Made by a program: the position numbers and the translations under genes | Shown: one piece after another, positions 2,257 to 44,041 of the stretch | How positions within the stretch are numbered: the first letter of the stretch is position 1 | Layout: each line of letters opens with the position of its first letter | Notes under the pieces: generated by a model | The model's input: the letters and a program-made list of their open reading frames with translations, nothing else | Told to the model about the DNA's origin: nothing | The model's database searches: none | DNA from: Cystobasidiomycetes sp. EMM_F5 | Taxonomy: Eukaryota | Assembly: GCA_051047955.1 (NCBI GenBank) | Contig: JBPGPT010000060.1 | Location: forward strand, 1-45,564 | Reading direction: 5' to 3' | Length of the DNA stretch: 45,564 nt

Positions 2257-3692
2257 TTAAAGTTCCAGCCATACAAAACATGTCGGACTAGCGAGCCTGC
2301 CTTGATTATCCTTCAAGCTGAGCCTGTCGATGAACTGCAGATGACCGGTGCTCGCATCTCGCTCAAACATGACGACCTCGGCGTTTTCTGCGACAGATCC
2401 CGCGACTAGATATTTGTTATCAGGCGAGAGCGCCAGGTCGCGTATGTGCCAACCGGGATCAGGCGATCTCGCATGTTGGACGACAGCCATACATAAGGGA
2501 TCCTCGATGTTGACAATAGTTATGCAGTCGCCATGTGGATGCTTTGCATCGTTTCTCATTGAAGCGTCTGTGAAGTCGAAATCATAGTTAGCCTAATCTT
2601 CTGTTCTGAGGCAAATTGGGAAACGTGCAGAGGAATCTCCCATCGAGACTGATCTTGATGGCAGATCCGCTGAGAGCCGTATATTGACCTTCAATGCAGC
2701 CATGAACATCAGGCGGAGCGACGTCGACGGACGCGCGATGTGTTAAGCTTATTTCGCGTGTCTTTGGGTTGCGCGACACAGCCCATGCAGCAACTGTGTG
2801 ACAAAGCTCGTACATGCAGTATAGGACGGTGTCTGCGAGGCAATGCATCAGCTTGTCTTAAATGGCACACCATTGGACAAAAGCTACTGTCTGCAGACCA
2901 TGCAAGCTGTCTGGGACCACTTCCAGCGGGCGCATCGTACTTGGCAAGTTCCGTAAGCTCGCTGTTGCTAGAATCAAGCTTGAGTATCCTTATGCAATCT
3001 GCTCCAAGGTCTGCTGCAAATACAAGCTGTGGGTCTGCCGGATATGGAGCGATGCAGTGACTGTGTGCTTCGGCTTGTCGGGATGGTATGGCGTTGGTGG
3101 CGTCCGCGTATGCAATCTTTGTGGTTCGAGACAAGCTTGATGGTGTGCGTGAGAAGTGAAAGCTCGATAGGACGCCTGGCTGGTACTGTAGGTGGAGGAC
3201 ATTGGTACAATTACAGTATGGCGGAGTACTGAATTACATACGCACGTTCGCGACTAGCGCAGTCTGTCCGTCCAAGCTCCAGGAAGAGTAGCATGGGGCA
3301 GCTGCACCGCTATCGACGCTGCACAGGACATCGTTCGGAGTGCCACTCACGTCGAGTCTGATGAGTCTTATTTGACCCTCTCGTCCGGAGGATGGCATGG
3401 TCTCATTGCATACCAGGAGCAAGCTAGGGTCTGACGGGTGTAGAGAGATCCACGCTGGATTCTCGCCAGCTGTGTCAAAGCAGGCAGTCTGTTGAAGTCT
3501 GCCTGTACTTGCTGGATCATCGTTAGGTGTCCACTCGAGCGTGAATATGTGGGTCGACGGGACGGGAATGGATGGATGGAGGGGAAGAAAGGTGCTGCAA
3601 AGACACAGCGATACTGTCAGATGGTCGTGCAGCGTCAGTATCACAGACACGCACTAGGAGGCCGTCCCGACTAGAATGCGATAAGATGGCAT
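2257..3692 (-). CDS. Lactonase-family 7-bladed beta-propeller (6-phosphogluconolactonase / carboxymuconate cycloisomerase-like), multi-exon
   Basis: Spliced start MPSYRILVGTASY. Motifs AGENPAWISLHP, VDSGAAAPCY, RQAEAHSHC, AADLGADCI, APAGSGPRQ, IKISLDGRFL, RDLALSPDNKYLVA and C-terminal SPTCFVW are typical of the family. Confidence 0.85.
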
Positions 3693-3900: not shown

Positions 3901-6900
3901 ATGGGCGTGCCAGCGTGAGTCCCGCCGTATCCGAGCATGGCTGCAACTTGGCTGAAGTCGAGCAAACCTGCAGACTCTTCCGATGGCTGTCGAGGAAATA
4001 TGTGAGCAGGCAAACAGCGAGGGCGGCGATGACTTGAGCGATGGCTATGGCTAGCAACGGCATCGCGGCTGTCCTCGCTGACTCATTGAACTGACAATGG
4101 CTGATATTCTGAATTATATTCGATGACTTGGGCAGCCAAAGATTGTGCTGTGAGTGGTAACATCGAGAGAGTAATCAACGTACATGTCCACTGACGGGCT
4201 ACTCGTCCGCAGCCCGGTCGTCGAGGAGCAGCCAGTAGTGTTTCCGGGTCCAGATGGCAGTCCTACAGAGATTCCAGTCGACATTACAAAGCCAAACCCA
4301 AATGGCCAGGAAGTCGACTGCCTGTATCTTGATATGAATGGTATTGTGCACCCGTGTACGCATCCTGAAGGCAAAACTGCGCCGAAAACAGAAGCCGCAA
4401 TGATGGTCGAAGTCTTCAAGTACACTGAGCGAGTCATAAACATGGCTCGACCGCGTAAAGTGATTCACATGGCTATCGATGGTGTCGCCCCCAGAGCAAA
4501 GATGAATCAGCAGCGATCTCGACGTTTCCGCTCGGCTGAAGAAGCAAAGCAGAAGGCCATCGAACGCGAACAGGCTATAAAGGAGTGGGAGGCCCTCGGC
4601 AAGACCATGTCTGACGAGTACAAGAACGAGCAGGCTTGGGATTCGAATGCCATCACTCCAGGAACGCCATTCATGGACCTCCTAGCTTCGTCGTTGAGGT
4701 ACTGGGTGGCTTACAAGCTAAACACTGACGCCGGCTGGGCTGGAGTGCAGGTCATCATTTCCGATGCCTCGGTGCCGGGTGAAGGAGAACACAAAATTAT
4801 GGACTTTGTACGACGACAACGCAGTCAACCAGGCTACGATCCCAACACTACACACGTCTTTTACGGCCTCGATGCCGATCTCATCATGTTGTCGCTGGCG
4901 ACGCATGAGCCCAACTTTAAGATCCTCCGCGAGGATGTATTCGCACAATCGGCCAAGCGTGGATGCCACAAGTGTGGTCTACCTGGTCATCATAGCAGTA
5001 AATGCCTAGGCATCACTCCCGAGCAAAAGATACAGCAGGAGACCGCTGCAAAGTCGGCATTGAAACCATTCATATTCTTGGATGTATCCGTCTTGCGAGA
5101 ATATCTGCAAATTGAGCTCGACATTCCAGGCCTGCCCTTTGCGTTTGACTTAGAACGTGCCATCGACGACTGGGTCTTTATGATTTTCTTTGTCGGAAAC
5201 GACTTTCTACCGCACTTACCGTCACTCGACATTCGAGAGGGGGCTATCGATATGCTGCTTGAGATTTGGCGACGTCAACTGCCACAGATGGGCGGTTATT
5301 TGACTGACAATGGCCGAGTAGATCTCGAAAAGGCTCAATACATTATGGATGGCCTCGCTGCCCGGGAAGACGACATCTTCAAAAAGCGGAGAGCCGAAGA
5401 AGAGCGTCAAAGTGCAATCGATCAGGAAAAGCGGAGGCGTATTGAAGGTACGCGCGAATACGACAGTCCTCGTAACTTCCAAAATGGACACTATCAGCGT
5501 GAAGAAAATCATCAAGCTGCCATTGAGAACACGCCCAACGTGCGCAATGGCGTAGAGTACGTACCTGTCGTGGTAGCCGCAGCTACCGTCCATCCATCAG
5601 CATCCGGTCCTGCGTCCGCTTCAAACCCACCGCAATACGGAGCGGTCGGTGCTCAACCTCCAAAGCCCAAAAATCCCATGTTTATCTCCTCACGACCAGT
5701 CAATGCACCGATTCGTGGCGGCTTCGTTGGCAAAGCTCAAGGGGCCACAGGCGGGACAAACGGAAGTGTCGGTACGGATACTCTGGCCAATAGGGCAGCG
5801 ATCAGAAAGGCAAATATGTCCGCAGCTGATTTGCTCCGAGCGGAGCTAGCCGGCGCTAAGAAGCCAGCTGCAACTGACAATGGAACGAATGGAGGCGCAG
5901 CGACTTCGTTAACGCACACGCCGCAGACACAAGAAGCTGTAGTCAGTTCTTCTGACGCAGTAGCCAATGATATGGCGGGCAATGGGATTATGACAGAACC
6001 AGACGGTGTACAAGATGCCGTGATCACACAACCGCTCGCGGACGAGGAAGATGTCGAAGAAGATGTTCCAGCTTCCGCAGTCGACGGCACCGGCGTAGCC
6101 GCCCAGTCAGTCCTCTTGTTGGAGGACTCTTCAGGAAATTCCGATTCTGCAGCGGGATCTGCCATGCCTCTCGATGACACATCTGACAGTCCCCGGGGCA
6201 AAAAGCGCTCGGCTGACGATGCTGGACTGCCCGCGACCAAAGCGCTAGCTTTGCTGGACGAGGAGAAGGATCAAAATGGGGAGTCGACGCCTGTAGAGGA
6301 TGACGATGATGACGAAGACGACGATAGTAGCGATGATGCCAACATCACTGGTGTGACAGCATCTCCGAGCAAAAGGGCCGCTCCGAAGCCGTTGAAGATG
6401 CTTGGCGGAAACATGGTTGAGCAGGAAGATACCGTAAAGTAAGTCGACCGACTCAGAGTACTTTGGAATTTACTGACACTCGATAACCTTGTAGACTATG
6501 GGAGCCAGGCTACAAAGAACGTTATTACGACCAAAAGTTTGGTGTTCTAATATCCGACGTTGAGTTTCGACGCTCATGCGCCAAATCATACGTTGAAGGT
6601 CTGTGCTGGGTGCTTGCCTACTACTATCAAGGCTGTCCTTCCTGGACATGGTATTACCCGCATCATTTTGCACCGTTCGCTTCAGACTTTACAGATCTTG
6701 CAACAATGGAGATCAAGTTCGATCTCGGCAAGCCCTTCAGGCCTTTCGAGCAATTAATGGGTGTCTTCCCTGCAGCATCGAGGAAGCACATTCCGGAAGC
6801 CTTCCAAGGACTGATGATTGAGGAGGACTCGGAAATCATAGATTTCTACCCAGCAGAGTTCGACGTAGATATGAATGGCAAGAAGGTACGTTTCCAATCG

Positions 6901-8065
6901 CTTTATACGGACCGTGATCGCAATTAACAATGCTACGTAGATGTTATGGCAAGGTGTCGCCTTGCTTCCCTTCATCGATCAACAGCGCCTATTGGAAGCG
7001 CTTGACAAACGCTACGGTCGCTTGACTGATGACGAAAACAAGCGTAACGCGCCGGGAAATGAAGTCGTCTTCGTCGCTGAGGACAACAGGATGTTTGATC
7101 AAATTACGAGCCTCTACATGAAGCGGAAGGTTGCAGACCCCATGCCCATCGATGCTACATTAAGTCGAGGTGTCAGGGGTGCAATCTTGCCTGATGAGTC
7201 ATGCGTTCCTAATTCCACCTTCGTATCGCCTCTCCCTAGCGAGAATTTGTCGGATATCAAGGATGATCGCTCCATTTCGGCGCTGTACTTCGTCTGTTCA
7301 CAAGCAACGGCCCATCGCAGCTTGATACTGCCTGGCTATCGACCAGTGCGGCGCGTCTTGAATCCCGACGATATCAACAAGATACATCGTGGACTAGGTG
7401 GCGGGGATGATCGCGGCTCGCGAGGTGACGGATGTCACGCACAGCGTCGCGACTTGGAAGGCCCGGGACATGTTCGTCGTGACGCTCGTAGCGTCCAAGA
7501 TCCTCGCCGAGAAGGAGGCGCTTACGTACAGCAGAGCCGACCGCAATGGGAGACTCCTGGTTATAATCGAGATACATACTCGCAAGGCCATCAAGCATAC
7601 CCTGCACCTCATCAGTACTCGCAACCACCGTACAATAATGGCGTTCAGCAGGGCTATGGTACATCATCGCAAAGTCCTGCATACGGTGGGTACGGGGGTC
7701 GCGGCAACGCTGGCAACAATCCAGAATACTCCAACTATGGATACGGCGGGCAGTCGTCACATGGAGGATACTCCAGCAGCAACTCCTATCCTGGTGCCAC
7801 TCAATCTCGTCCGCCTTCGTATGGCTCGTACCAACCTTCCCCTCCGACATATGGGGGCTATGGCAATGCAGCGCCTCCCAATCAGCCTCCCCAGCAATAT
7901 CAATACGGCTACGCGCCTCCCACAACCGCAGATTACGGTTCCTACCGGCCTCCGGCCCCACCGCAGCACTCGTATCCGGGTCAGAGTAATCGAGGTGCTC
8001 CCCTCCCCTCGCATTTACAGCAGCCAGGAGGCTTTAATGGTCAAGCACAGCATCGTCGCTGGTAA
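3901..8065 (+). CDS. XRN2: 5'-3' exoribonuclease 2 (Rat1/Xrn2/Dhp1)
   Basis: Small exons 3901-3914, 3974-4001 and 4136-4149 give [18 protein letters not shown]. Further motifs: [54 protein letters not shown] knuckle [45 protein letters not shown]. Confidence 0.97.
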
Positions 8066-14058: not shown

Positions 14059-18768
<4,710 letters not shown>

Positions 18769-18796
18769 GGTAGTGGCATGGGAGCATCAGACGGTC

Positions 18797-18801
18797 AAAA
18801 A
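18797..18801 (-). terminator. Probable Pol III terminator (T5) for tRNA-Thr
   Basis: First T5 downstream of the tRNA (tcgtctttcTTTTTgacc). An earlier T4 lies at 18845-18848, but the tRNA's own intron contains a T4 that must be read through. Confidence 0.5.
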
Positions 18802-18860
18802 GAAAGACGAATGATGCTGAACACTTCCGTCACACCCAGAAAGCAAAAGAAGAGGCGCAG

Positions 18861-18953
18861 TGCCTGCTAGAGGGGTTGAACCTCTGACCTCCACGTCGCG
18901 ACCGACAAAACCGGCGTACGAGCGCGGCGCTTCTACCACTGAGCCAAGCAGGC
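18861..18953 (-). tRNA. tRNA-Thr(CGT) with a 20-nt intron
   Basis: Minus strand GCCTGCT TG GCTCAGTGGTAGAAGC G CCGCG CT-CGT-A [cgccggttttgtcggtcgcg] A CGTGG AGGTC AGAGG TTCAACC CCTCT AGCAGGC A. It has a 7-bp acceptor stem, A and B boxes, a 5-bp T stem, an intron one base 3' of the anticodon and a 73-nt mature length. Confidence 0.92.
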
Positions 18954-18979
18954 AAAACGGTTGGCGACCGGATTGTACA

Positions 18980-18993
18980 TAAGATATAATATT
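18980..18993 (-). promoter_or_regulatory. TATA-like element about 30-40 nt upstream of the tRNA (likely TFIIIB site)
   Basis: Minus strand aatattatatctta, at the spacing typical of upstream TATA elements of fungal tRNA genes. Confidence 0.45.
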
Positions 18994-19009: not shown

Positions 19010-19150
19010 CTGTCTCCTCGTTCCTTTGCTGCTTTTCGCTTGTCAGTGTGCTGTTCCGCCGTTGTTGTCCCTTTCTCCTCCTCTTCTCTTCTCCTCTCTT
19101 GCTCCTTCTCTCTTCTTTCCCTCATCCTATTTTGTCGTCATTCTTACTTT
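19010..19150. repeat. Polypyrimidine/polypurine (CT/GA) low-complexity tract
   Basis: ctttctcctcctcttctcttctcctctcttgctccttctctcttctttccctc on the plus strand. Confidence 0.7.
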
Positions 19151-19438
19151 GAACGGCCTCATACTCATCCACGCAATCCTCCGTAAAATACGCATAAACT
19201 GATCAGTCCGTCGGGCGGAGAATGATGCAGAATTCAGGCAAGGTAGATACCGCAAGCCGTTTCTCATCCACTCCATTCATACTGATCTGATCTGATCTGA
19301 CGTCTGCTACATTCGACGTCTGGACAACGTTTTCAAAACTACGTGACATTCAAGCTGTTCAAAAGGTTTGGCGCATCTGTAACGACCTTTCTTAGATGGA
19401 AAGATCCCACCAAAATATAACGAAATGGGCACTTGCCG

Positions 19439-19808
19439 CTAACTCCGGGAATTTGGCTCAGTATAGCACGCTATGCAAGCCATTGGATACGTCGTCGAAC
19501 AGCCGTGTGACGCATCCCCTGCCATAAGGCCAAAATTGCAGCCGTTCGCAGCTGCACAGTCCATTGATCGGTAACACCCTTGGCCGGTACCATCTGCGAC
19601 TCTGCTAAATGCCTCACGCCAGTATCAGCTTCGGAACACAATTCTGACGACCTCTTATTGCGGGTCCGTACAAGTTGAATTCACCGCAGCTGTCGCAGCC
19701 CGCTACAGGGCAATTAGCCCACGGCACAGCATCTCTGGGTACTATAGCAGCAAGTGCTGTACTGGTGATGCAGAATGCGATTGCGAGATGGTGAAAGATT
19801 TTGTACAT
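19439..19808 (-). CDS. Small secreted Cys-rich peptide, divergent copy D
   Basis: MYKIFHHLAIAFCITSTALAAIVPR-DAVPWANCPVAGCDSCGEFN, an intron (exact donor/acceptor uncertain), then RVADGTGQGCYRSMDCAAANGCNFGLMAGDASHGCSTTYPMACIACYTEPNSRS*. Shares GCDSC, GCY+S..C...N.C and GC...YP..C..C with copies A-C. Confidence 0.78.
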
Positions 19809-20206: not shown

Positions 20207-21126
20207 TCACGCCTTGCGCTTGACCGCCTTTGGACGAACCTGCGGCTGAAGGAGCTTCAACAGCTCGTCTGTATCCTCCTCTATGCCCATCTCGTCCACC
20301 AGCCATTCTTTACTCTCTCCCGAGGCATCCAGAACAATCTGACCCATCTCCTTGCCAGCCTTTCTCCTCGTTATCCACACCTTTCTGACCTTTTCAAACT
20401 CGCCATCAACGGCTTTGATGTCTGCGGTGCTGAGCATCATTGAAGGGTTCTCTCTCAGTGCTGTCAAATGCGAGGACTGCTGAGTGATGTCGGCTTGTAG
20501 AGCTTCGATGCGCATGGGAAGGTCATTCGTGGCCGGTGCACTTTCCAAAGCGACAATGTCTGGGATGCTCAAGTCAGCGAGTATTAGGAGAAGAAGCGCA
20601 GACCGACTGACCTTGCTGGACGCTCTTGGAGAGTACGGTAAGTTCCATGATGCGCGCCTTGATCTCGGATACCTGTGTCCGGATGTTTGCCAGTTCCTCC
20701 GAGTCTACGGTTTCTACAGACTGCGCGAATGTTAATTTGGTGTAGTCATACCGAGTATACACCACCCCACCTGCTTTGGTGCGTATATTGCCTGTTTGCC
20801 GTACAGCTTCTCCACAATCTCGCCCTTTGCCGCCAGTGACGCCAGGGCTTTGACGATTGCGGGTTTCGAGATGTTGTGCTTTGCTTTGAGGTTTGCCTGC
20901 AAGTCTGTCGCGTTGTATGGCCTGTTTTGCTTGACGAGATACTGTGCAGCGCTGCAGAATCAGCAACCACACCATATGCGACACTGTCGTCCAGCCTGAC
21001 CTCGAGAATAACGGGCTCAGCCTCGTCGTCCGTGACCTTTTTACCGCCAGCACCACTCGTGCCAGCGCCCCCACCTCCAGCACTGCTCCCAGCGCCTCCC
21101 TTGCTGTCTGCCTTCTTTGGCGGCAT
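20207..21126 (-). CDS. HOP2: Homologous-pairing protein 2 (Hop2/TBPIP/Meu13)
   Basis: Spliced EAEPVILE-YLVKQNRPYNATDLQANLK...KPAIVKALASL...IVEKLYGKQAIY (winged helix), then a coiled coil, KVWITRRK and C-terminal LVDEMGIEED. Confidence 0.85.
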
Positions 21127-21233: not shown

Positions 21234-23388
21234 ATGTCGAGATTGCAGAAACGCAGGCCGAGTCATGTAGCCGCAGCCAGCTCGTCGTCGTGGAGCTCGC
21301 CGCATCCTCTGCAGGCCAGTGTGGACATCGCAAACCGGTCAAGGACGAGAAAACATGCTGCGAGCTATCACGACCTCTTACGACTCGGTAGGAGTCATTC
21401 GAAACCTTCTTGCTGCCGCAAATCACGCTGATTTGTTCCTCCAGTCGACCTGCCGTCTCAGATTCATGAACCCCTCCTGGGATGGTACGGCTCAAGGGGT
21501 GACCTGCCCTGGCGTAAAGATCTATCCGATGAGCAGATAGCAGCTCTTGCTGATGCGGACAAGGCTCAAAGAGCATATGAAGTGAGTTGGGAGTGGCACA
21601 CTTCGCTCCATCTGATGTACATCATGCAACAGGTGTGGGTATCGGAAATCATGCTGCAACAGACGCAAGTCGCGACTGTGATACCATACTACAACAGATG
21701 GTATGTCGGACCCGACTTGTCAATGTCGATTCGCCGGCTCATTGAGTCCATTTACACACACAGGATGGAAGCATTCCCCACTGTTCAAGTACTAGCAAAA
21801 GCAGATATTGAGGCGGTGAACGGTCTATGGAAGGGCCTCGGCTATTATTCGCGAGCATCGCGACTATTGGAAGGTGGCAAGACTGTCGTCAATACGTATA
21901 AGGGAAAACTGCCTTCCGATCCAGACATTCTCGTAAAAAAGATCGAAGGAATTGGACCATATACTGCAGGAGCAATCGCATCGATAGCCTACGGAGTCAG
22001 AACTCCCACTGTGGACGGCAACGTGAGTCGCATGATTGTTGCTATATCTGTAACAATCGCTTAAACATCCGTGAACCCTTTCAGATACAAAGAGTCATCT
22101 GTCGCCTACTAGCGATACATGCCGATATGAAGAAGAAGGCCACTGATGCATACATTTGGCAAACCGCCAAAGATCTATTGCCAAAGTCGCGCTCAGGGCA
22201 TTGGAAGTAGGTCTTGTTGCTGCCGAAAGAAGCCATGACATCAGAGCACATCGTCATTGCTGACGCACTGTGAGATAGTCAAGCACTAATGGATTTAGGA
22301 GCCACAACATGTATACCCAAAAACCCCAAATGCAAGGAATGTCCGCTGCGGACTGTGTGCATGGCATACGCTGAACAGGTTAGGCCACGTCAAAAGGCCA
22401 AAAAATCTTGTGCAAAAGATATGCTGACATCCATCTCATGTCACTCAGACAAAATATGCTTCTGCCAAACGGCTAGCACAGGCTGTTGACATTGAAGATC
22501 TGGCAATAAAGGGCGACGAGTGCGACTTGTGCCTGCCGCTCGATCCGCCTACTCTCGAACGCGACGTGACAATGTATCCGCTCAAGGTAGTCAAGAAAAA
22601 GTCGCGCGATGAAGACCTAGCCGTTTGCGTTGTCGAGTGGCGGTCGCGTGGCAACGACCAAGCGGAAAAGATTCTGCTTGTCAAGCGGCCGAAGACTGGT
22701 AAGTACCCTATTCGATGCTTCTTTTGCCGTACTTTGAAGCGGAAACCTGATCATTACGCAATGGGTTCTTCAGGTCTTCTAGCTGGCTTGGATGAGTTTC
22801 CTAGCGTGGTCATGCCAGAAAGCGCATCAACACTGTCAGAGCGGAGTTTGAAGTCAGAAGAACTGCTAAAGGAGCTGCTTCACCTTCCCGAGACATTTTC
22901 TCTTGACAGCTCCCGCGACTACATAACGTGTGAAGTCACATCTTTCAAAGATTTTGGCAGCATCAAGCACATTTATTCGCATATAAACGCGACGTTTCAT
23001 TGTCGTCACCTAGTCATATCAGCAATCAGTCCGCCCCGCATTCGAGGCAGTCATGATCGTTGCCGATGGGCTACAAAAGCGGAAATCGAAAAGGCCAATA
23101 TTTCGACAGGTACGATTGGTCGTTTTGGCGTCTTTCGTCGTCTTCCACTGACACTCTGTTGCCACTTTATCCTGAACCGCCAATATGATAGGTGCTGTTA
23201 AAGTCTGGACTTTAATCTCGTCGGGCATACCCGTCAAGCAAGGCAAAGCTAGCAAGCGGAAATCTTTACCGGAAGCGAATGGATCTCGCAAGATTTCGGA
23301 CTTCTTGAGTAGAAAGACTGTGTCTGTGGAAGTCATGCCCTCCCCAAAACGTGCGCGTCGTATCGTAATCGACAGTGATTCGGAGTAA
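21234..23388 (+). CDS. MUTY: A/G-specific adenine DNA glycosylase (MutY/Myh1)
   Basis: [41 protein letters not shown], HhH motif IEGIGPYTAGAIASIAYG, VDGN, WNQALMDLGATTCIPKNPKCKECPLRTVC ([4Fe-4S] motif), NUDIX-like KRPKTG-LLAGLDEFP and IKHIYSHI. Confidence 0.95.
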
Positions 23389-23586: not shown

Positions 23587-32999
<9,413 letters not shown>

Positions 33000-33306: not shown

Positions 33307-35323
33307 ATGAACCCCGACACTGACTCTGCGCTCAATGCTCACCGTCTGCGGCCCTACGTCGTCGCACCGTCCCCCGAAGACTTTTTATCGCAGCCCGACG
33401 GCGTGTTTGGGGCTTCGAATAGTTATAATCATATAGCAGCTGCAGCTGCTTCAACCTCGAGCTCTGGGCGGTACACGTCCATCTCCGACATCTACGGAGG
33501 TGTCAACGCCGTCGTCGCTCCCCCGGACGGTCTCCTCCCCGTCCACAACCCTGCAGACACTCTGGGTGATGTCCTCTCCAAGCTCGCTTCAGCCGGGGCA
33601 CTCAGCTTTGCCTCCATCGCCTGCGTGATGCCGTTCGAGGTTGCAAAGACCCTCCTCCAGGTCCAGTGGATCCCGAAAGCTGACGTCGAGTTGCTCAACG
33701 ACGACGACGACCAGGAAGATGTCGATAACGCGTCGCATCTGGAGGAGCACGGCAACGTCTACGACCCAGCAGACAGTCTCGACGACGAGCAGGAAGCGCA
33801 GGCCTACTTTCGCGACCTGACCGAGGGAAACCACTTTGCATGGCAGCGAGAAGACGGACCGCGACAAAACACTCAACGCCGGAGACGATTCCGAGGGCAG
33901 TCGACCGACGAGGCGCACGAAGGTGCCGGAGAACGTCTATCGGCTACAGGCGTGACCCCCTCCGTGACAGTCTCGCGGCCAGCGACCATTCACAGAGACA
34001 CGGCCGGCTACATTGTCCGAAGGAGCATATTTGACCAAGATACAAAGCCAGACTGGATCCTACCGTTCACTGTGACGGGCGGAGTGTGGGACATGATGAA
34101 GGCTGTAGGGAGGTGGAAGCCTGAAGGCTGGCTGTGTCTGTGGAAAGGTGCGATAAAGACTCTCATCTTTGTTGGTCAATCACTTACCATCCCTGACACG
34201 CAATACAGGCCAGCTGACGACGTTTGTCATGGAGACACTCTCCTCTACACTTCAACCATTCCTCTTCTCCGTCCTCGCCGCAGCGTTATTGCGCGACTCT
34301 CACTTCTCCACACTTCCCCTCGTCCACGTTCCTCGACCACTCAAGCCTCTCTTGGTCACCATCACATCCCACGTCCTCTCGTCCCTCATCCTTTCCCCTC
34401 TCGACCTCGTACGAACGCGACTCATCTGCCAATCTGGACAATCACGTCATCGCAAGTACTCTGGGCCCGTTGATGCTCTGCGCAAGATTCACAAAGAAGA
34501 GGGAGGTATACTGTATGGTCTATATGCGCACCCTTCACTCTGCGTCCCTGCTTTGCTAGACTCGCTCGTACGGTCGACGTTTACTCTTGGCATACCCTTG
34601 TTTATCGAGCGGTCGCTGCACGTCAGCCAAGACAACAATCATATTCTGTATGGACTGGCCGAATTGACGTTGGCAACTGCATCTCTAGTCGTCACGCTGC
34701 CGATCGAGACTGCCCGTCGTCGACTCCAGCTCCAGTCGCGTGCATCAGTGACGGGCCAAGCGGGGATAAAGACGTACAAGCCAGCCGTCGAGACGCGACC
34801 AAAGGCATACAGCAATATCGCTGAAGCAGTGTATCGTATACTGACAGAGGAGACGGGTCGACTGCATCTGTACAGCCCAGAGCAGAAACCGAGAAGGCCA
34901 AGCCAGTCGGGCAGAAGACCGAGCATGACAAACGTCAAGGGAGAGCAGCAGAGGCGACCTAGCTTTCTCTCTTCGCGTAGACCGACGGCAGCTGGCTTTG
35001 CGGATCGAAGTTATAGCTTTAGTGCTGAAGGGCAAAGTGGAGATGGATCAGCGGGCACGACGGCAGCGGATCCGCGTAGCGGTCCGACGCTCAATCCATC
35101 GAGTGAGGACACAGGCAGGCTCTCTGTACCCGAGGATGGTCTCACGGAAGGGGCAGAGGGTACTGCGCAACGGCCACTGGAGCCAAGCGAGATGCCTCTC
35201 TTCGCCGGCGTCACCCAACTATATCGCGGCTTTTCCCTCGGAGTCGGCACAAACCTCATTGTGTTTGTGCTTGGTCTAGTAGCGGGTAAGGGCGATGTGT
35301 CGACGGGATGGACAGAGATGTGA
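33307..35323 (+). CDS. UGO1: Mitochondrial fusion protein Ugo1 (degenerate mitochondrial carrier family)
   Basis: N-terminal LRPY motif; MPFEVAKTLLQVQW followed by an acidic loop; GVWDMMK...EGWLCLWKG-QLTT; carrier motifs SPLDLVRTRL and LPIETARRRLQLQ; LYRGFSLG. One intron at about 34148-34209. Confidence 0.8.
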
Positions 35324-40296: not shown

Positions 40297-43200
40297 TCAT
40301 AGAATCTGCAGTCCCTCGGAAGCGATTAATTTGAGGAACTCTTGAGCCAAATCTTGTGGTACTGCCTCGACGAGTGGGCCGATTTTGCCTGGATTCGCTC
40401 GACTGCACTCACTTAGCGCACGGGCCATGTACGTTCCTGAATCATGAATGTCGGGCAAAGTATCGCGCCGAGCGGGCTCAGATGCTCCAAGTTTGGAGAA
40501 TGAAGCTTGGTAACCTGATTCTTCCAAGTCGGCAATGTGAATGACCTCATCATCTCCAGCGCCGGTTGTCGCCAAATCCCTGGGCAGCAGGAATAGGCGC
40601 AAAAATGTCTCAAATGTAGCAGGCCTACACACGGTGGCCGTGTCAGTCCAGATTGGTACACGTGTAATAAAGATCAAGTGCGCACCAAGCAGAAACGCCG
40701 CCATTGAGCATGTTTGAGCTTTTGGTGAGGAGATTAGCCAGTCCTACGGTGACGATCTTGCGATCTTTTGGCGCGGTTTTCTGAATGTCAGGAAGCATCT
40801 TCTCGAGCATCTTGATGAAGAGCCTGTTTATTCGCGAGACCATGTGAGCGTTTTACACAAGCGTCTTCGATCGTCTCTTCAACTCACCCTGGCTGCAGGC
40901 TTTCCAGCTGTTGGTAAATCTCATCTGCCCCCAAGCCGGGCTTTTGGGTGGCTATTGGTAGCAGAAGCGCTCTCACGAAGGACTCGGTAAACCGTGGAGT
41001 CTTGCTCTGCGTTAGACGGGTCATGAGCAGAACGAAGATATCTCGCAAATACGGCTGTAAGCTTGACCTAGCAAGCAGAACAAAGTCAGTAGCGAGTCAA
41101 AGTCCGAAATAGGCTAGGCGACGCACGAAGGGATATCTTGGAACAAGCCTTCGACCAATTCGCATCCATTCGGGTCGTTCGCCTTCGATTGCAAAAGGAA
41201 GCGAACGATGTCCTTGATCCGATCGAGTTGTCCGGTCGATACGATAATATTGGACCCTTTCTCGAGAAAGGCACGCAACAGGCGGACGAGTGCAGGAATA
41301 TTGCCTCTGTTGTTGATCCACAGACTTGCATCCATCACGGGCGGGATCAGAGCCTCGTATGCCGCCGGCAGCGTACCCGGCTGGTGGAGCTCGAGTAATT
41401 GTGACAGTATTTGAAAAACGAAAGGTGAGAATTCGGCAATGTCCTGAGCAAGAATGTACTGGAAGGGCGGGAAAAGGGCTGCCTCGAATTCAGGCAGCGT
41501 CGATGGAGTACCGGCGACCACGAATCTGATCATGCATGCGAATATGTTTGCTCAGCCTGAGATCAGGTTTTGCAAGATGCACGGCTTACCGAACTAGGGC
41601 AGACATGCTCTCAAATGTATAGTGGCTGAATTTTGGATTACTAGGGTTCTTGCTAATCTCGCCCATGATGTTGGTAAGATGTTGCAACACGACATTGTAT
41701 ATAGGCGTCATCGCTTGACGTGCGACGATAATGACTCGCATAACACCTGTATCGAAAGTGTCCTGTTTAGCCAGTTCCTGACATACACAAGTAAGGCTCA
41801 CATCGCATAAGCAGATCGTTCTTTGAAATCTCCTCCGGAGTTGTGCCACGCTCGATAGTGGTGAACAAAGCTACAAGCAAGCTTTCGGCGAACGGCCTGA
41901 TGTCCGCTTGACCAAATCTGTTTAAAAATCCGTCAGCTCAGCTGGCTGGACGAGCGCCTCTTGGACCTCACAATAGGGTATTCTTCTGCTTGATGCTAAG
42001 TATTCGTTCAATCGTCATTGCAGCGTAGGAGTGGATGACGAAAGAGTCGTGTTGCAAAAGAGGCGATAGTATGGGAACAACTGACACCAATTGTTCTTTG
42101 GTGAGCTGACTACGGAAAGTGTACAAAAATTTGACGGCGTCCGCAATGATGATGGGATGCGGTTTGTTGGCAACATCGGCAGAGGCTTGTAAGTCTTGCA
42201 GGACGTGGTCTTCGAAGAATTGAACGACTCTGATGAGAGAATTTGTTGATGTGACACCTTGTTGAGCTGTGACTCCTCTTGCTGCAATTGATGTCAACAA
42301 GAACACAGCGGTATCCTTGTCTTTCCAGTGTGCTGCTTTGTCTGCGTTGTATCGCTGCAAATGAGCTTGTATGTACGTGCTAATGATTTCTGTTACGCGA
42401 GCTTCGAACTGGTCCATTAGCGCGCGAGTAAAGTCTGAAGCCGATTGTCTTCTGGTTTCCGCGTCTGCGCTCCATGCTGTTAATTACGCATTTTGGGCTA
42501 ACCGAGACAGAGACAATCTTACCTCCCGCAGTTTCCAGCAAATCCCGTCTGACATACTCAAACGGATCGTCCTCAAACATCTCTTCTTCGAAAGCTGATA
42601 CATAAGGCAGTCGCATTAATGCTATGCCGGCGTGGCAGAGGTGCTCACTTACGACGCAACGCCATATTGGGTAGAACTATCTTCTCGCAGAAGCTCTCCA
42701 GTACGCCGGGCCCTTCAAACATCGCCTTCTTACCGGGCATGCGGACTGAGACTGACAAAAAGCTAATGGCCTTGCTGACGAGCTGTAATGGCAGTTGAAG
42801 GTGAGCAGATGACCTTGAAGATATCGATAGCCGGCTGAAAGCAACCTACAATATCATACTTTACAGATTGACCCAAGCCCGTTAGCAATGTCCACGTAGT
42901 CTCCACAAACTGCTCCATCATGGTAAACTCTTCCAAGTATTTCTGGGTGTACAGCTGCGCAATTTCGCATATACTTGCTCGAACCTTCTCGAGCGGCCCA
43001 GCTTCATCTTCATCGTCATCGCTCACGAGTTCTGGCCTGGACCACGTCAGGTATTTGTGGAGGAGAGCCATACAGGGGACAATGTTAGTTTCGAAGAATT
43101 CAGGCAAGTCCTGGCAGTTGAGATCGTAGAATATTTGCAACAGTAGGAGGAGTGTACGCGAAAGAGTTGTTGGATCTGCGGGAGACGGCATGGTTTGCGG

Positions 43201-44041
43201 AGCTGATAGCAGCTGATCCGTTCTCTGCATTCGTAACGAAGCCTTGTCAGCAATGAGCATGGAGATTGAACATGCCGCAATATACCTGAAACAGCCCCAT
43301 GAATGGCTCGCAGAACCGCTCCAAGACGTACTTGATTTCGAGAAACAGCTGATCTGATCTGAATTGCGACCTCCATCTGTGTGCTGTACTTTAGCAAGGC
43401 TCCTGAATGCTGCGTCTGTGAAGACAGATGCCCACCTCCTGAATATCGCGTGGGCGGTCTGCAGCACGGCGTTGTTGACGATGAAGTTGTCTTGCGTAAA
43501 GTTTGCCACCAGTTGCTATCAAGAGTCTCGTCAGAAAGCGCAACCTGCTTGAAGCGGATAAAGATATGCTCACATCCACCAAATCCACCCATTCGTAAGG
43601 AAAGTCTGCTTCTGCCACGACTGCAATAGCTTCGCCGACTTGAACTTGAATATTTGGTACTCCAGACAGCTGGATCATGACTTGGACGATGCCAGCTTTG
43701 AGCGGCGCCCTGTCCGCATCCGGCACCGGGAATGGAGATGGTTCCTCATCGTTCTAACGCGGTCAGAGTACTTCCTTCAGCCGTATATCCCAATGTGCCT
43801 GACTGGTGTCGAATGAAGAATAAAAACATACAGACGCCCAGCCTTCGCGGATGTAGTTCTTGAAGGCTACCGCAGAAGCTTGCCGTACAGCCTTGTCGAA
43901 GCCGTCGGACTGGGCGAGTTCGAGCGCCGTCTGGCTGAAACCTGGGCTCGTTTTGAGCTGCTCGAGCTGCCTTTCCGCTCCTCTGCGCTCTGCAGGACTG
44001 GGCGACAGCGACGTCTGAAGCAGAGCTGCGAGCTGTTGCAT
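40297..44041 (-). CDS. CSE1: Importin-alpha export receptor Cse1/CAS (exportin-2)
   Basis: IBN_N domain (AERRGAERQLE...VRQASAVAFKNYI), IAVVAEADFPYEW, FYDLNCQDLPEFFE, EEMFEDDPFEYVRRDL, WKDKDTAVFL, ISKNPSNPKFSHYTFES, EFSPFVFQILSQLLE, GNIPALVRLL, EESGYQASFSKL. Confidence 0.96.

Follow-up and report, generated by a model that had tools for sequence, protein, structure and literature searches.

A tRNA-Thr(CGT) gene abutting the gene for the largest RNA polymerase III subunit in a cystobasidiomycete: a probable accident of neighbourhood with probable local effects

Introduction

Can a gene whose transcription falls to RNA polymerase III (Pol III) govern the synthesis of the polymerase that transcribes it? 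The question is raised by a locus of Cystobasidiomycetes sp. EMM_F5, where a tRNA gene lies directly upstream of RPC1, the gene for the largest Pol III subunit. The window that we analysed is the whole 45,564-nt stretch of contig JBPGPT010000060.1 (assembly GCA_051047955.1). An initial annotation of this DNA had proposed that Pol III occupancy of the RPC1 promoter limits the production of the catalytic subunit of the enzyme, or that tRNA and mRNA share a transcript. All features of the window located by position below are on the minus strand. Published work is cited from excerpts, and statements that rest on it hold for the excerpted text.

Results

RPC1 and its start codon

The RPC1 gene, delimited by its frame map, Pfam matches and protein identity, occupies positions 14062–18768 and starts with the ATG at 18768. 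Exon 1 covers 18583–18768 and is followed by several introns; protein comparisons were made with single exon pieces. These pieces match the Pfam Rpb1 domains 1–5 (PF04997, PF00623, PF04983, PF05000 and PF04998) and are 82% identical to a Cyphobasidiales RPC1, and 62–67% identical to most other named basidiomycete RPC1/RPO31 proteins among the matches listed. The N-terminus read from 18768 is colinear from Met1 with 16 of the 17 named fungal RPC1 proteins among the matches listed, the 17th being a partial protein. Both the identity of the gene and its start codon are confirmed.

Two out-of-frame ATGs, at 18787 (39 codons) and 18779 (31 codons), precede the RPC1 start within the span 18777–18787, and both reading frames overlap it. 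Each carries C at position −3, while the RPC1 ATG carries A. An additional upstream ATG is found at 18980. With upstream ATGs so near the RPC1 start, the choice of transcription start site would matter.

A contig scan with an RPC1 exon-3 peptide gave 161 pattern matches, two of which passed tblastn; these are weak, at 34–35%, come from prokaryotic MAGs and are irrelevant here. The protein of the neighbouring Hop2/TBPIP gene has nine matches, the best named one being from Cystobasidium minutum (84%) and none from the Cyphobasidiales MAG.

The tRNA gene

When introns were allowed, ARAGORN called a tRNA-Thr(cgt) at c[18860,18953] with intron i(38,20); without the intron option the same place was called tRNA-???. 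Rfam family RF00005 matches 18861–18953 over the full model (positions 1–71 of 71) and scores 45.8 bits, the gathering score being 29 (E 9.9e-07). This is a genuine, intron-containing gene of nuclear type at 18861–18953, and the only RNA gene found by either Rfam or ARAGORN across the 45.6-kb window. Its 5' exon (18917–18953), which includes the anticodon (18918–18920), and its 3' exon (18861–18896) are separated by a 20-nt intron (18897–18916) at the canonical position 37/38. The 7-bp acceptor stem and the 5-bp T stem are both perfect, and the D stem has just three Watson-Crick pairs according to ARAGORN. The predicted fold contains acceptor and anticodon stems, a T arm and a helix between anticodon and intron; its z-score of −0.71 is uninformative. 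Cloverleaf score, CGT anticodon, intron position and the presence of both internal promoter boxes place the gene among nuclear tRNA genes with type 2 Pol III promoters.

The internal promoter was assigned from the sequence. The A box, TGGCTCAGTGG, lies at 18936–18946 (tRNA positions 8–18); the A-box consensus is TRGCNNAGTGG. An AT-rich, TATA-like element at 18983–18993, approximately 30–40 nt 5' of the mature tRNA end, is a candidate TFIIIB/TBP site; some fungi, such as S. pombe, have tRNA genes that use a TATA element at −30. The B box, GGTTCAACCCC, at 18872–18882, contains the invariant C56 and matches the published consensus GWTCRANNC (PMC4228148). The tRNA gene is probably active. With its two boxes it occupies positions −93 to −185 relative to the RPC1 ATG, and the 92 nt between its 3' end and that ATG (18769–18860) are all that separates the two genes, which lie on the same strand.

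Predicted Pol III termination ahead of RPC1

A T4 directly 5' of the mature tRNA (18954–18957) would belong to the 5' leader provided that Pol III starts farther upstream, and a second T4 (18907–18910), which sits in a hairpin loop of the predicted fold, is within the intron, where transcription must pass through it. Downstream of the gene, the first T run is a T4 at 18845–18848 (+13 to +16), within TCTTCTTTTGCTTTCT. The first T5 follows at 18797–18801, which is +60 relative to the tRNA 3' end and corresponds to −33 to −29 relative to the RPC1 ATG. The next T4 beyond it is in RPC1 intron 1 (18493–18496), and no T6 or longer run was present in the 861 nt scanned 3' of the tRNA gene, down to 18000. 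The initial annotation thus had the geometry right: the tRNA coordinates and the 92-nt spacing are reproduced by ARAGORN, Rfam and inspection of the sequence, and the T-run scan recovers both the T4s that it named and the T5, which it had put about 30 nt from the ATG.

Across the window, T runs of five or more have a density of 0.42 per kb per strand. By our arithmetic one would start in a given 60 nt only ∼2.5% of the time, and so the T5 at 18797–18801 is probably a signal and not noise. This T5 lies in a CT-rich tract, and such tracts often precede fungal Pol II start sites.

How the runs should be read depends on the yardstick. In S. cerevisiae a T4 causes very little pausing of Pol III, a T5 is the minimal terminator and a T6 is needed for efficient termination (10.1101/2021.08.27.457903); read-through is widespread in that species (10.1101/2021.08.27.457903; PMC4937561), and the resulting extended pre-tRNAs are unstable (PMC4937561). 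By this standard, which may not be that of the present fungus, the T4 at 18845–18848 is probably a weak primary terminator and the T5 at 18797–18801 probably a secondary one. After the tRNA 3' end there is a T4 at +13, a T5 at +60 and nothing longer, albeit the T-run requirement of the host may differ from that of yeast. Since both lengths are weak in yeast and T4s are also found in the intron and the leader, Pol III plausibly reaches the T5 some 30 nt before the RPC1 ATG or continues past it. Given the 92-nt spacing and the lack of a T6 or longer run, Pol III traffic and factor occupancy almost certainly overlap the RPC1 core promoter or 5' UTR. On this structural side the proposal of the initial annotation is reasonable.

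Sequences beyond the tRNA gene

Three sense GGATGAG words, the core of the PAC box, are located farther upstream at 19121–19127, 19164–19170 and 19263–19269 (local Markov P ∼0.01). Two of the copies belong to a 14-nt direct repeat, and GATGAG in the sense orientation is enriched upstream of RPC1 in Agaricomycetes. The words are presented as candidate upstream regulatory elements of RPC1 with a putative function. The tRNA gene, lying between these candidates and the ATG, has to share this stretch physically with the RPC1 promoter. A purine-rich tract is also found upstream of the tRNA gene. Still farther upstream, a co-oriented ORF with a signal-peptide-like start is predicted at 19614–19808; it has no match to a Pfam family above the cut-off. 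A candidate splice pair brackets the tRNA: a donor-like AAG/GTAAGA lies at ∼19147, and a pyrimidine tract that runs into CAG at ∼18816 resembles an acceptor.

Is the arrangement conserved?

For comparison we used 50 metagenomic RPC1 loci, all of them from Agaricomycetes and hence from a different subphylum than the host, which belongs to Pucciniomycotina. An exon-1 match was obtained in 47 of the 50; at least 300 nt of upstream sequence was available in 42 of these, which fall into 25 clusters at 90% identity. The only tRNA gene that ARAGORN predicted across the 50 loci was a tRNA-Glu in locus L010, ∼2.5 kb upstream of RPC1 and on the opposite strand, with an intron of 207 nt. This prediction was rejected as a false positive, Rfam having no match in L010. 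Rfam at the gathering threshold gave no match in the 32 of the 50 loci that were searched (232,205 bases), which represent all 25 clusters and include L010.

Nor did isolated promoter boxes turn up in unusual number. B-box-like words showed no excess upstream of the Agaricomycete RPC1 genes (11 observed against 9.3 simulated for the loose pattern and none for the strict one), and A-box words were absent from these regions. A conserved site resembling the ETC loci of yeast is not supported for the Agaricomycete upstream regions. The tRNA-RPC1 linkage, whose conservation the initial annotation had named among the tests of its proposal, was missing from 25 of 25 distinct loci, albeit loci of another subphylum. 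Because of that distance, the absence shows no more than that the tRNA-RPC1 arrangement is not ancient. A literature search for a tRNA gene in an RPO31/RPC1 promoter revealed no such arrangement in the titles and opening abstract lines of the matches listed.

Is the adjacency expected by chance?

The chance of the pairing was estimated by our own arithmetic on round numbers (∼150 tRNA genes, ∼7,000 genes and ∼25–30 genes for the Pol III machinery). Roughly 2% of genes would then have a tRNA gene as their 5' neighbour, and the probability of at least one pairing of a tRNA gene with a Pol III-machinery gene per genome is in the tens of percent. By this rough reckoning the adjacency is within chance expectation and not an unlikely accident.

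Discussion

Explanations of the locus

We consider it probable that an ordinary, and probably active, tRNA-Thr(CGU) gene has ended up by accident in the intergenic stretch 5' of RPC1 in a compact genome, where it exerts generic local effects and takes no part in a selected feedback. TFIIIC would be bound to the A and B boxes, and TFIIIB would cover the AT-rich element near −30. Pol III would pass the T4 of the intron; some of it would stop at the T4 (+13) and most at the T5 (+60), and a part may continue into RPC1. By analogy with yeast tRNA genes, the bound gene probably maintains a nucleosome-free region with positioned flanking nucleosomes, acts as a roadblock to Pol II arriving from upstream, and somewhat dampens the RPC1 promoter. 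Its pairing with a Pol III subunit gene would most likely be accidental and not a selected circuit. Several observations count against accident: the tight spacing with no T6 or longer run; the position of the tRNA gene between the GGATGAG words and the ATG, which is the geometry of an enhancer blocker (10.1101/412247); the precedents of TFC6/ETC6 and Polr3e/MIR (PMC3334521; PMC5358760); and the fact that the negative result on conservation comes from another subphylum only.

Selection could have acted on the arrangement without any feedback. The bound Pol III complex may serve as a boundary for RPC1, stopping Pol II from upstream, fixing the nucleosome-free region and forcing a proximal start, such that 5'-extended mRNAs with upstream ATGs are avoided. 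This agrees with the behaviour of yeast tRNA genes, which block intergenic Pol II and whose loss yields poorly translated 5'-extended ATG31, FAR3 and TIM21 mRNAs (PMC4228148), and the locus offers both a co-oriented predicted ORF (19614–19808) and two out-of-frame ATGs before the RPC1 start, besides the one at 18980. That ORF is a prediction with no Pfam family above the cut-off, however, and 25 of 25 Agaricomycete RPC1 promoters do without a tRNA gene; we regard a boundary role as unlikely. A dedicated negative feedback, in which occupancy by Pol III, TFIIIC and TFIIIB or promoter occlusion by read-through lowers RPC1 in proportion to Pol III activity and thereby steadies the catalytic subunit, would be allowed by the geometry (same strand, 92 nt, nothing but one T4 and one T5 ahead of the ATG, no T6 or longer). 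It would also draw on the weakness of T4 and T5 and the frequency of read-through in S. cerevisiae (10.1101/2021.08.27.457903; PMC4937561), on the repression of TFC6 by ETC6 (∼two-fold; PMC3334521) and of Polr3e by MIR (PMC5358760), and on the repressibility of Pol II promoters near tRNA genes (PMC4228148; 10.1101/412247). Against it stand the lack of the linkage, and of ETC-like B boxes, in all 25 distinct Agaricomycete upstream regions, an adjacency within chance expectation, the small effect on most natural neighbours of yeast tRNA genes reported in the excerpted sources (PMC4228148; 10.1101/412247) and the ineffectiveness of the sense orientation in the Polr3e reporter (PMC5358760). Moreover, loss of Pol III driven by Maf1 under stress would derepress RPC1, contrary to the usual growth-coupled control of the subunits. 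Taken as a whole, this makes dedicated feedback quite improbable. We give as little credence to its most specific form, in which the tRNA-Thr(CGU) gene would act as an inbuilt gauge of how active Pol III is, with terminators that are weak by design (T4, then T5, none longer) letting Pol III cross the RPC1 core promoter and either occlude Pol II or shift starts to sites with upstream ATGs.

The two genes might also share a transcript, either because the Pol II start of RPC1 lies upstream, which would place the tRNA within the 5' UTR or an intron of it, or because Pol III reads through to give a tRNA-RPC1 co-transcript. The three GGATGAG candidates and the purine-rich tract are indeed on the far side of the tRNA gene, the candidate donor (∼19147) and acceptor (∼18816) could bracket it, and no strong Pol III terminator precedes the ATG. 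However, RNase P and RNase Z would excise a tRNA from the 5' UTR, so that the RPC1 ORF would lose its cap, and an uncapped Pol III RNA would not be efficiently translated. The splice sites are, in addition, guesses from sequence, and extended pre-tRNAs are unstable in yeast (PMC4937561), which leaves a shared transcript very improbable. The weak terminator (a T4, then a T5 only at +60) and the D stem of three Watson-Crick pairs would suit an inactive relic or pseudogene, able at most to bind TFIIIC in the manner of a yeast ETC site. Such decay is scarcely credible in view of a full-length match to the tRNA model far above threshold, perfect acceptor (7-bp) and T (5-bp) stems, an intron at the canonical position with anticodon-intron pairing, A and B boxes that are both intact, and the TATA-like element at −30.

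Taken as found, the locus is a natural example of a weakly terminated Pol III unit packed against an essential Pol II promoter, which is not in itself surprising but makes it a useful test site for polymerase interplay. Should the pairing prove functional, it would be the first instance of a whole tRNA gene, in sense orientation, that controls the gene for the Pol III catalytic subunit, and a third mechanism beside TFC6 and Polr3e, extended to a basidiomycete. Were the sensor reading true, it would constitute a promoter-occlusion loop between two nuclear polymerases, unlike the factor binding of TFC6/ETC6 or the antisense elongation block of Polr3e/MIR.

Comparison with known systems

A close parallel in kind is TFC6/ETC6 of S. 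cerevisiae, in which TFIIIC bound at ETC6 lowers TBP binding and represses TFC6 ∼two-fold (Kleinschmidt et al. 2011, per PMC3334521). There too, a gene that encodes part of the Pol III machinery has a site for that machinery within its Pol II promoter (PMC3334521), just as the A and B boxes recognized by sequence lie in the promoter region of RPC1. ETC6, however, consists of a single B box that TFIIIC occupies and Pol III does not transcribe (PMC3334521), whereas the RPC1 element is an entire tRNA gene, and probably a transcribed one. The host genes also differ, TFC6 encoding a TFIIIC subunit and the present one the largest subunit of Pol III.

In mammals, a Pol III-transcribed, tRNA-derived MIR lowers Polr3e, suggesting feedback (PMC5358760). 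Both loci associate a tRNA or tRNA-derived Pol III unit with the gene of a Pol III subunit, modulation having been demonstrated for Polr3e alone (PMC5358760). The analogy with Polr3e drawn in the initial annotation holds in this respect and fails in geometry: MIR is antisense, resides in intron 1, affects Pol II at the elongation stage and is conserved throughout the mammals, and, as a section heading of the report states, sense-oriented MIR did not reduce the reporter (PMC5358760). The RPC1 tRNA gene, by contrast, is on the RPC1 strand upstream of the ATG, would act on initiation and is absent in the 25 distinct relatives examined.

More general are the local effects of tRNA genes in S. cerevisiae, where they can repress nearby Pol II promoters (tRNA gene-mediated or tgm silencing, tRNA position effect; PMC4228148; 10.1101/412247) and, when placed between upstream elements and a promoter, act as enhancer blockers (10.1101/412247). 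The proximity is comparable, as in tgm silencing an active tRNA gene and a Pol II promoter are at most a few hundred bp apart and only 92 nt separate the tRNA 3' end, of a gene presumed active, from the RPC1 ATG; here the gene possibly stands between upstream elements and the core promoter. These effects are nevertheless general and independent of the product, have been demonstrated in budding yeast only, as far as the excerpts go, and bear no relation to the function of the neighbour (PMC4228148; 10.1101/412247). In microarrays, mutants in Pol III factors showed minimal effects on the genes adjoining tRNA genes (PMC4228148). The initial annotation had leaned on the capacity of active tRNA genes to repress neighbouring Pol II promoters; most natural neighbours are little affected (PMC4228148; 10.1101/412247).

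Yeast tRNA genes also block intergenic Pol II, and their loss gives rise to 5'-extended, poorly translated downstream mRNAs of ATG31, FAR3 and TIM21 (PMC4228148). The RPC1 locus resembles the roadblocks ATG31/SUT467, FAR3/tW(CAA)M and TIM21/ETC9 in having its tRNA gene in the range of 100–300 bp upstream of the ORF, the one at FAR3 being ∼200 bp away (PMC4228148). As at those loci, loss of the complex would permit 5'-extended mRNAs, which the upstream ATGs would render harmful. Unlike at those loci, the upstream transcription unit of RPC1 is an ORF prediction only.

Finally, the locus recalls the read-through of weak Pol III terminators that yields 3'-extended pre-tRNAs in yeast (PMC4937561; 10.1101/2021.08.27.457903): at RPC1 a short primary run (T4) precedes a secondary terminator (T5), and an extension would span ∼60 nt or more. 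In yeast a T4 as the first tract is rare and the extended transcripts are degraded (PMC4937561; 10.1101/2021.08.27.457903). Unlike in the yeast cases, an extension on the RPC1 side would run through an essential gene's promoter or 5' UTR.

Identity of RPC1 and its genomic neighbourhood

The minus-strand reading that opens at position 18768 yields 62 residues, a 65-nt intron and then the zinc-binding and clamp regions of the largest RNA polymerase subunit, and the exon pieces match Pfam Rpb1 domains 1–5. The 517-residue exon of this gene, RPC1, is 82% identical to a Cyphobasidiales MAG protein and shares 62–67% identity with the majority of the remaining named fungal proteins listed, many being labelled RPC1 or RPO31 at source. 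Since the N-terminus is colinear from Met1 in 16 of the 17 relatives compared (the remaining one being a partial protein), the ATG at 18768 is the true start. Exon 1 (18583–18768) spans 62 codons without the intron seen in metagenomic Agaricomycete loci (L001–L050), where this intron comes after an initial RPC1 micro-exon of 13 codons (MKEAVSHQAPKVM-type).

Farther upstream lies a TBPIP/Hop2-type (homologous-pairing) gene with several introns (20207–21126, minus strand). Its winged-helix exon (20771–20941, minus strand) shares 84% identity, over 57 residues, with a Cystobasidium minutum protein carrying the TBPIP domain and 91% with a Logan protein; the ORF pieces of the gene searched alone matched no Pfam family. 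Cyphobasidiales belong to the Cystobasidiomycetes (Pucciniomycotina), so that the similarities of RPC1 and Hop2 together place the window in a fungus of or near this class. Between the two genes there is a small minus-strand ORF (19614–19808, possibly continuing to about 19449) with a signal-peptide-like start, many cysteines and a possible second, likewise Cys-rich exon; no Pfam family scored above the cut-off for 19614–19808. If real, it would be the gene that precedes, in the same orientation, the tRNA gene described below. Pfam further identified NPL4 (1143–1655), a lactonase (2709–3233), an XRN-family 5'–3' exonuclease (4175–8065, plus strand), a MutY-like HhH-GPD/NUDIX_4 glycosylase (21432–23201, plus strand), a BEACH-domain protein (25951–32487, minus strand), a mitochondrial carrier (34157–35323) and Cse1 (41968–43515, minus strand).

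A tRNA-Thr gene adjacent to RPC1

A tRNA-Thr(CGT) gene occupies positions 18861–18953 of the minus strand, and its adjacency to RPC1 is confirmed. ARAGORN run without the intron option reported it as tRNA-???; with introns allowed, it was recognized as tRNA-Thr(cgt), interrupted at the 37/38 junction by an intron of 20 nt. The Rfam tRNA model covers the gene end to end (45.8 bits; gathering score 29), and neither program found a second RNA gene in the 45.6-kb window. Inspection of the sequence revealed perfect acceptor and T stems, an intact A box (TGGCTCAGTGG; 18936–18946, minus strand), an intact B box (GGTTCAACCCC; 18872–18882, minus strand) and a TATA-like AT-rich element ∼30–40 nt ahead of the mature tRNA 5' end. 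Single-sequence folding recovered the acceptor, T and anticodon stems, together with an extra anticodon–intron helix and a small intron hairpin; the z-score of this fold (−0.71) is uninformative in either direction. Immediately 5' of the TATA-like element is a purine-rich GA tract of ∼115 nt (19010–19125, minus strand), and a short (TCAGA)n microsatellite is found farther upstream (19282–19300, minus strand).

The details of spacing and T runs in the initial annotation all proved correct. The tRNA 3' end is separated from the RPC1 ATG by 92 nt (18769–18860). On the minus strand, T4 runs are located just before the mature 5' end (18954–18957), within the tRNA intron (18907–18910), where the fold places it in the hairpin loop, and at +13 from the tRNA end (18845–18848). 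The T5 at 18797–18801 lies at +60 from the tRNA end and at −33 to −29 from the ATG; the next T run in the sense strand is a T4 inside RPC1 intron 1. Runs of T6 or longer number only six in the window, both strands summed, and those of T5 or longer have a density of 0.42 per kb per strand. At this density a T5 within 60 nt of the tRNA end is expected by chance in ∼2.5% of cases by our own arithmetic, and is thus unlikely to be noise. In S. cerevisiae, T4 is reported to cause very little pausing of Pol III, T5 to be the minimal terminator and T6 to be required for fairly efficient termination, four-T first tracts being rare (10.1101/2021.08.27.457903). Read-through to downstream terminators is described as widespread, the extended transcripts decaying rapidly (PMC4937561). 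If this fungus behaves like S. cerevisiae, Pol III would often reach the T5 and sometimes pass beyond it.

Linkage in other basidiomycetes

The 50 loci used for comparison came from a metagenome scan in which the exon-3 peptide of RPC1 was the query (48–58% identity). All 50 had their best match to named proteins among Agaricomycetes, including Coprinellus, Crucibulum, Russula, Lactarius, Amanita, Tylopilus and Tulasnella; the window RPC1 peptide is nearest to Cyphobasidiales and rust proteins. Exon 1 was matched in 47 loci, 42 of which had at least 300 nt of upstream sequence (32 at least 1 kb), and the 42 upstream regions formed 25 clusters at 90% identity. Across all 50 loci ARAGORN made a single, implausible prediction: a tRNA-Glu interrupted by a 207-nt intron and lying 2.5 kb away on the opposite strand. 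No RNA family was detected by Rfam in 32 of the loci (232 kb, representing every cluster). A tRNA gene next to RPC1 is thus absent from the 25 Agaricomycete clusters, a long-range comparison only, and the arrangement is not a general basidiomycete feature; the result carries no information on the organism's own class or order. Nor is there an excess of B-box or A-box words in the Agaricomycete upstream regions, indicating that TFIIIC sites are not a regular component of RPC1 promoters.

Hints to the RPC1 promoter

The sequence offers some hints to the position of the promoter. Fungal start sites are often preceded by CT-rich tracts, and the T5 at 18797–18801 is embedded in such a tract. Two out-of-frame ATGs (18787 and 18779, minus strand), which precede the RPC1 ATG by 19 and 11 nt, open frames of 39 and 31 codons that both run over the RPC1 start; the −3 position is C at both (weak context) and A at the RPC1 ATG. 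Either the 5' UTR would be extremely short or RPC1 translation would need leaky scanning.

Upstream of the tRNA gene, three sense GGATGAG words fall within 150 nt (19121–19269, minus strand). The word occurs 7 times in the window versus 7.7 expected. A local first-order Markov model gives P∼0.01 for the clustering of these three, and two of them extend to a 14-nt direct repeat with copies at a spacing of 99 nt. The PAC (polymerase A and C) box, known from ribosome-biogenesis and polymerase genes of budding yeast, has GATGAG as its core (PMC3612091). Among the 25 non-redundant Agaricomycete upstream regions this core is present 15 times in sense orientation (13 loci; simulated mean 5.4, P∼0.0003) and never in antisense, ranking 19th of 3545 six-letter words. 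However, the same survey classes Basidiomycota as 'RRPE only', i.e. without PAC (PMC3612091), and the signal is therefore a lead rather than a finding. If the GGATGAG words do control RPC1, the tRNA gene, standing between them and the ATG, would be truly inside the promoter.

Many Agaricomycete RPC1 promoters possess a conserved block, GACGCGCAAGTC ... GTCACGCGATCGTCAC ... GTCACA, ∼60–130 nt before the ATG (L003, L005, L013, L018, L028, L029, L030, L036, L037 and others), and words such as GTCACG, CACGCG and CGTCAC are 8–11-fold enriched. No clear counterpart of the block was found in the window.

Significance of the arrangement and comparison with known systems

With round numbers of ∼150 tRNA genes and ∼7,000 genes, ∼2% of genes would have a tRNA gene as 5' neighbour. 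Genes for Pol III subunits, TFIIIB, TFIIIC and Maf1 number some 25–30, and on this arithmetic any one genome has a fair chance of at least one pairing with a tRNA gene. Because, in addition, very many windows were surveyed, the pairing alone is no evidence of function. On balance, the most likely reading is that the tRNA gene is an ordinary, active one whose place in the RPC1 promoter region is accidental and which exerts generic local effects. Judging from its stems and boxes, there is no reason to think the gene dead, and an inactive relic is a very improbable reading, the least likely of those considered. That the tRNA forms part of an RPC1 transcript is also less likely and strikes us as quite improbable.

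A selected role of the tRNA gene as boundary or roadblock is rather unlikely, yet has parallels: in yeast, a tRNA gene can silence Pol II promoters close by, act as an enhancer blocker and halt intergenic Pol II, and its loss leaves the downstream gene with 5'-extended, poorly translated mRNAs (PMC4228148). As a counterpoint, when one yeast chromosome was stripped of all its tRNA genes, expression changed for very few genes (10.1101/412247). Dedicated Pol III feedback on RPC1, as put forward in the initial annotation, appears distinctly unlikely; among the papers listed in a search for tRNA genes at the RPO31 promoter, titles and abstract openings showed nothing relevant. Related control is nevertheless described for other genes of the Pol III machinery. 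Intron 1 of mammalian Polr3e harbours a conserved, antisense, Pol III-transcribed MIR that impedes Pol II elongation and is reported not to reduce a reporter when placed in sense orientation (PMC5358760). The S. cerevisiae TFC6 promoter contains the B box ETC6, where bound TFIIIC reduces TBP occupancy and where blocking TFIIIC binding raises the TFC6 transcript about two-fold (PMC3334521).
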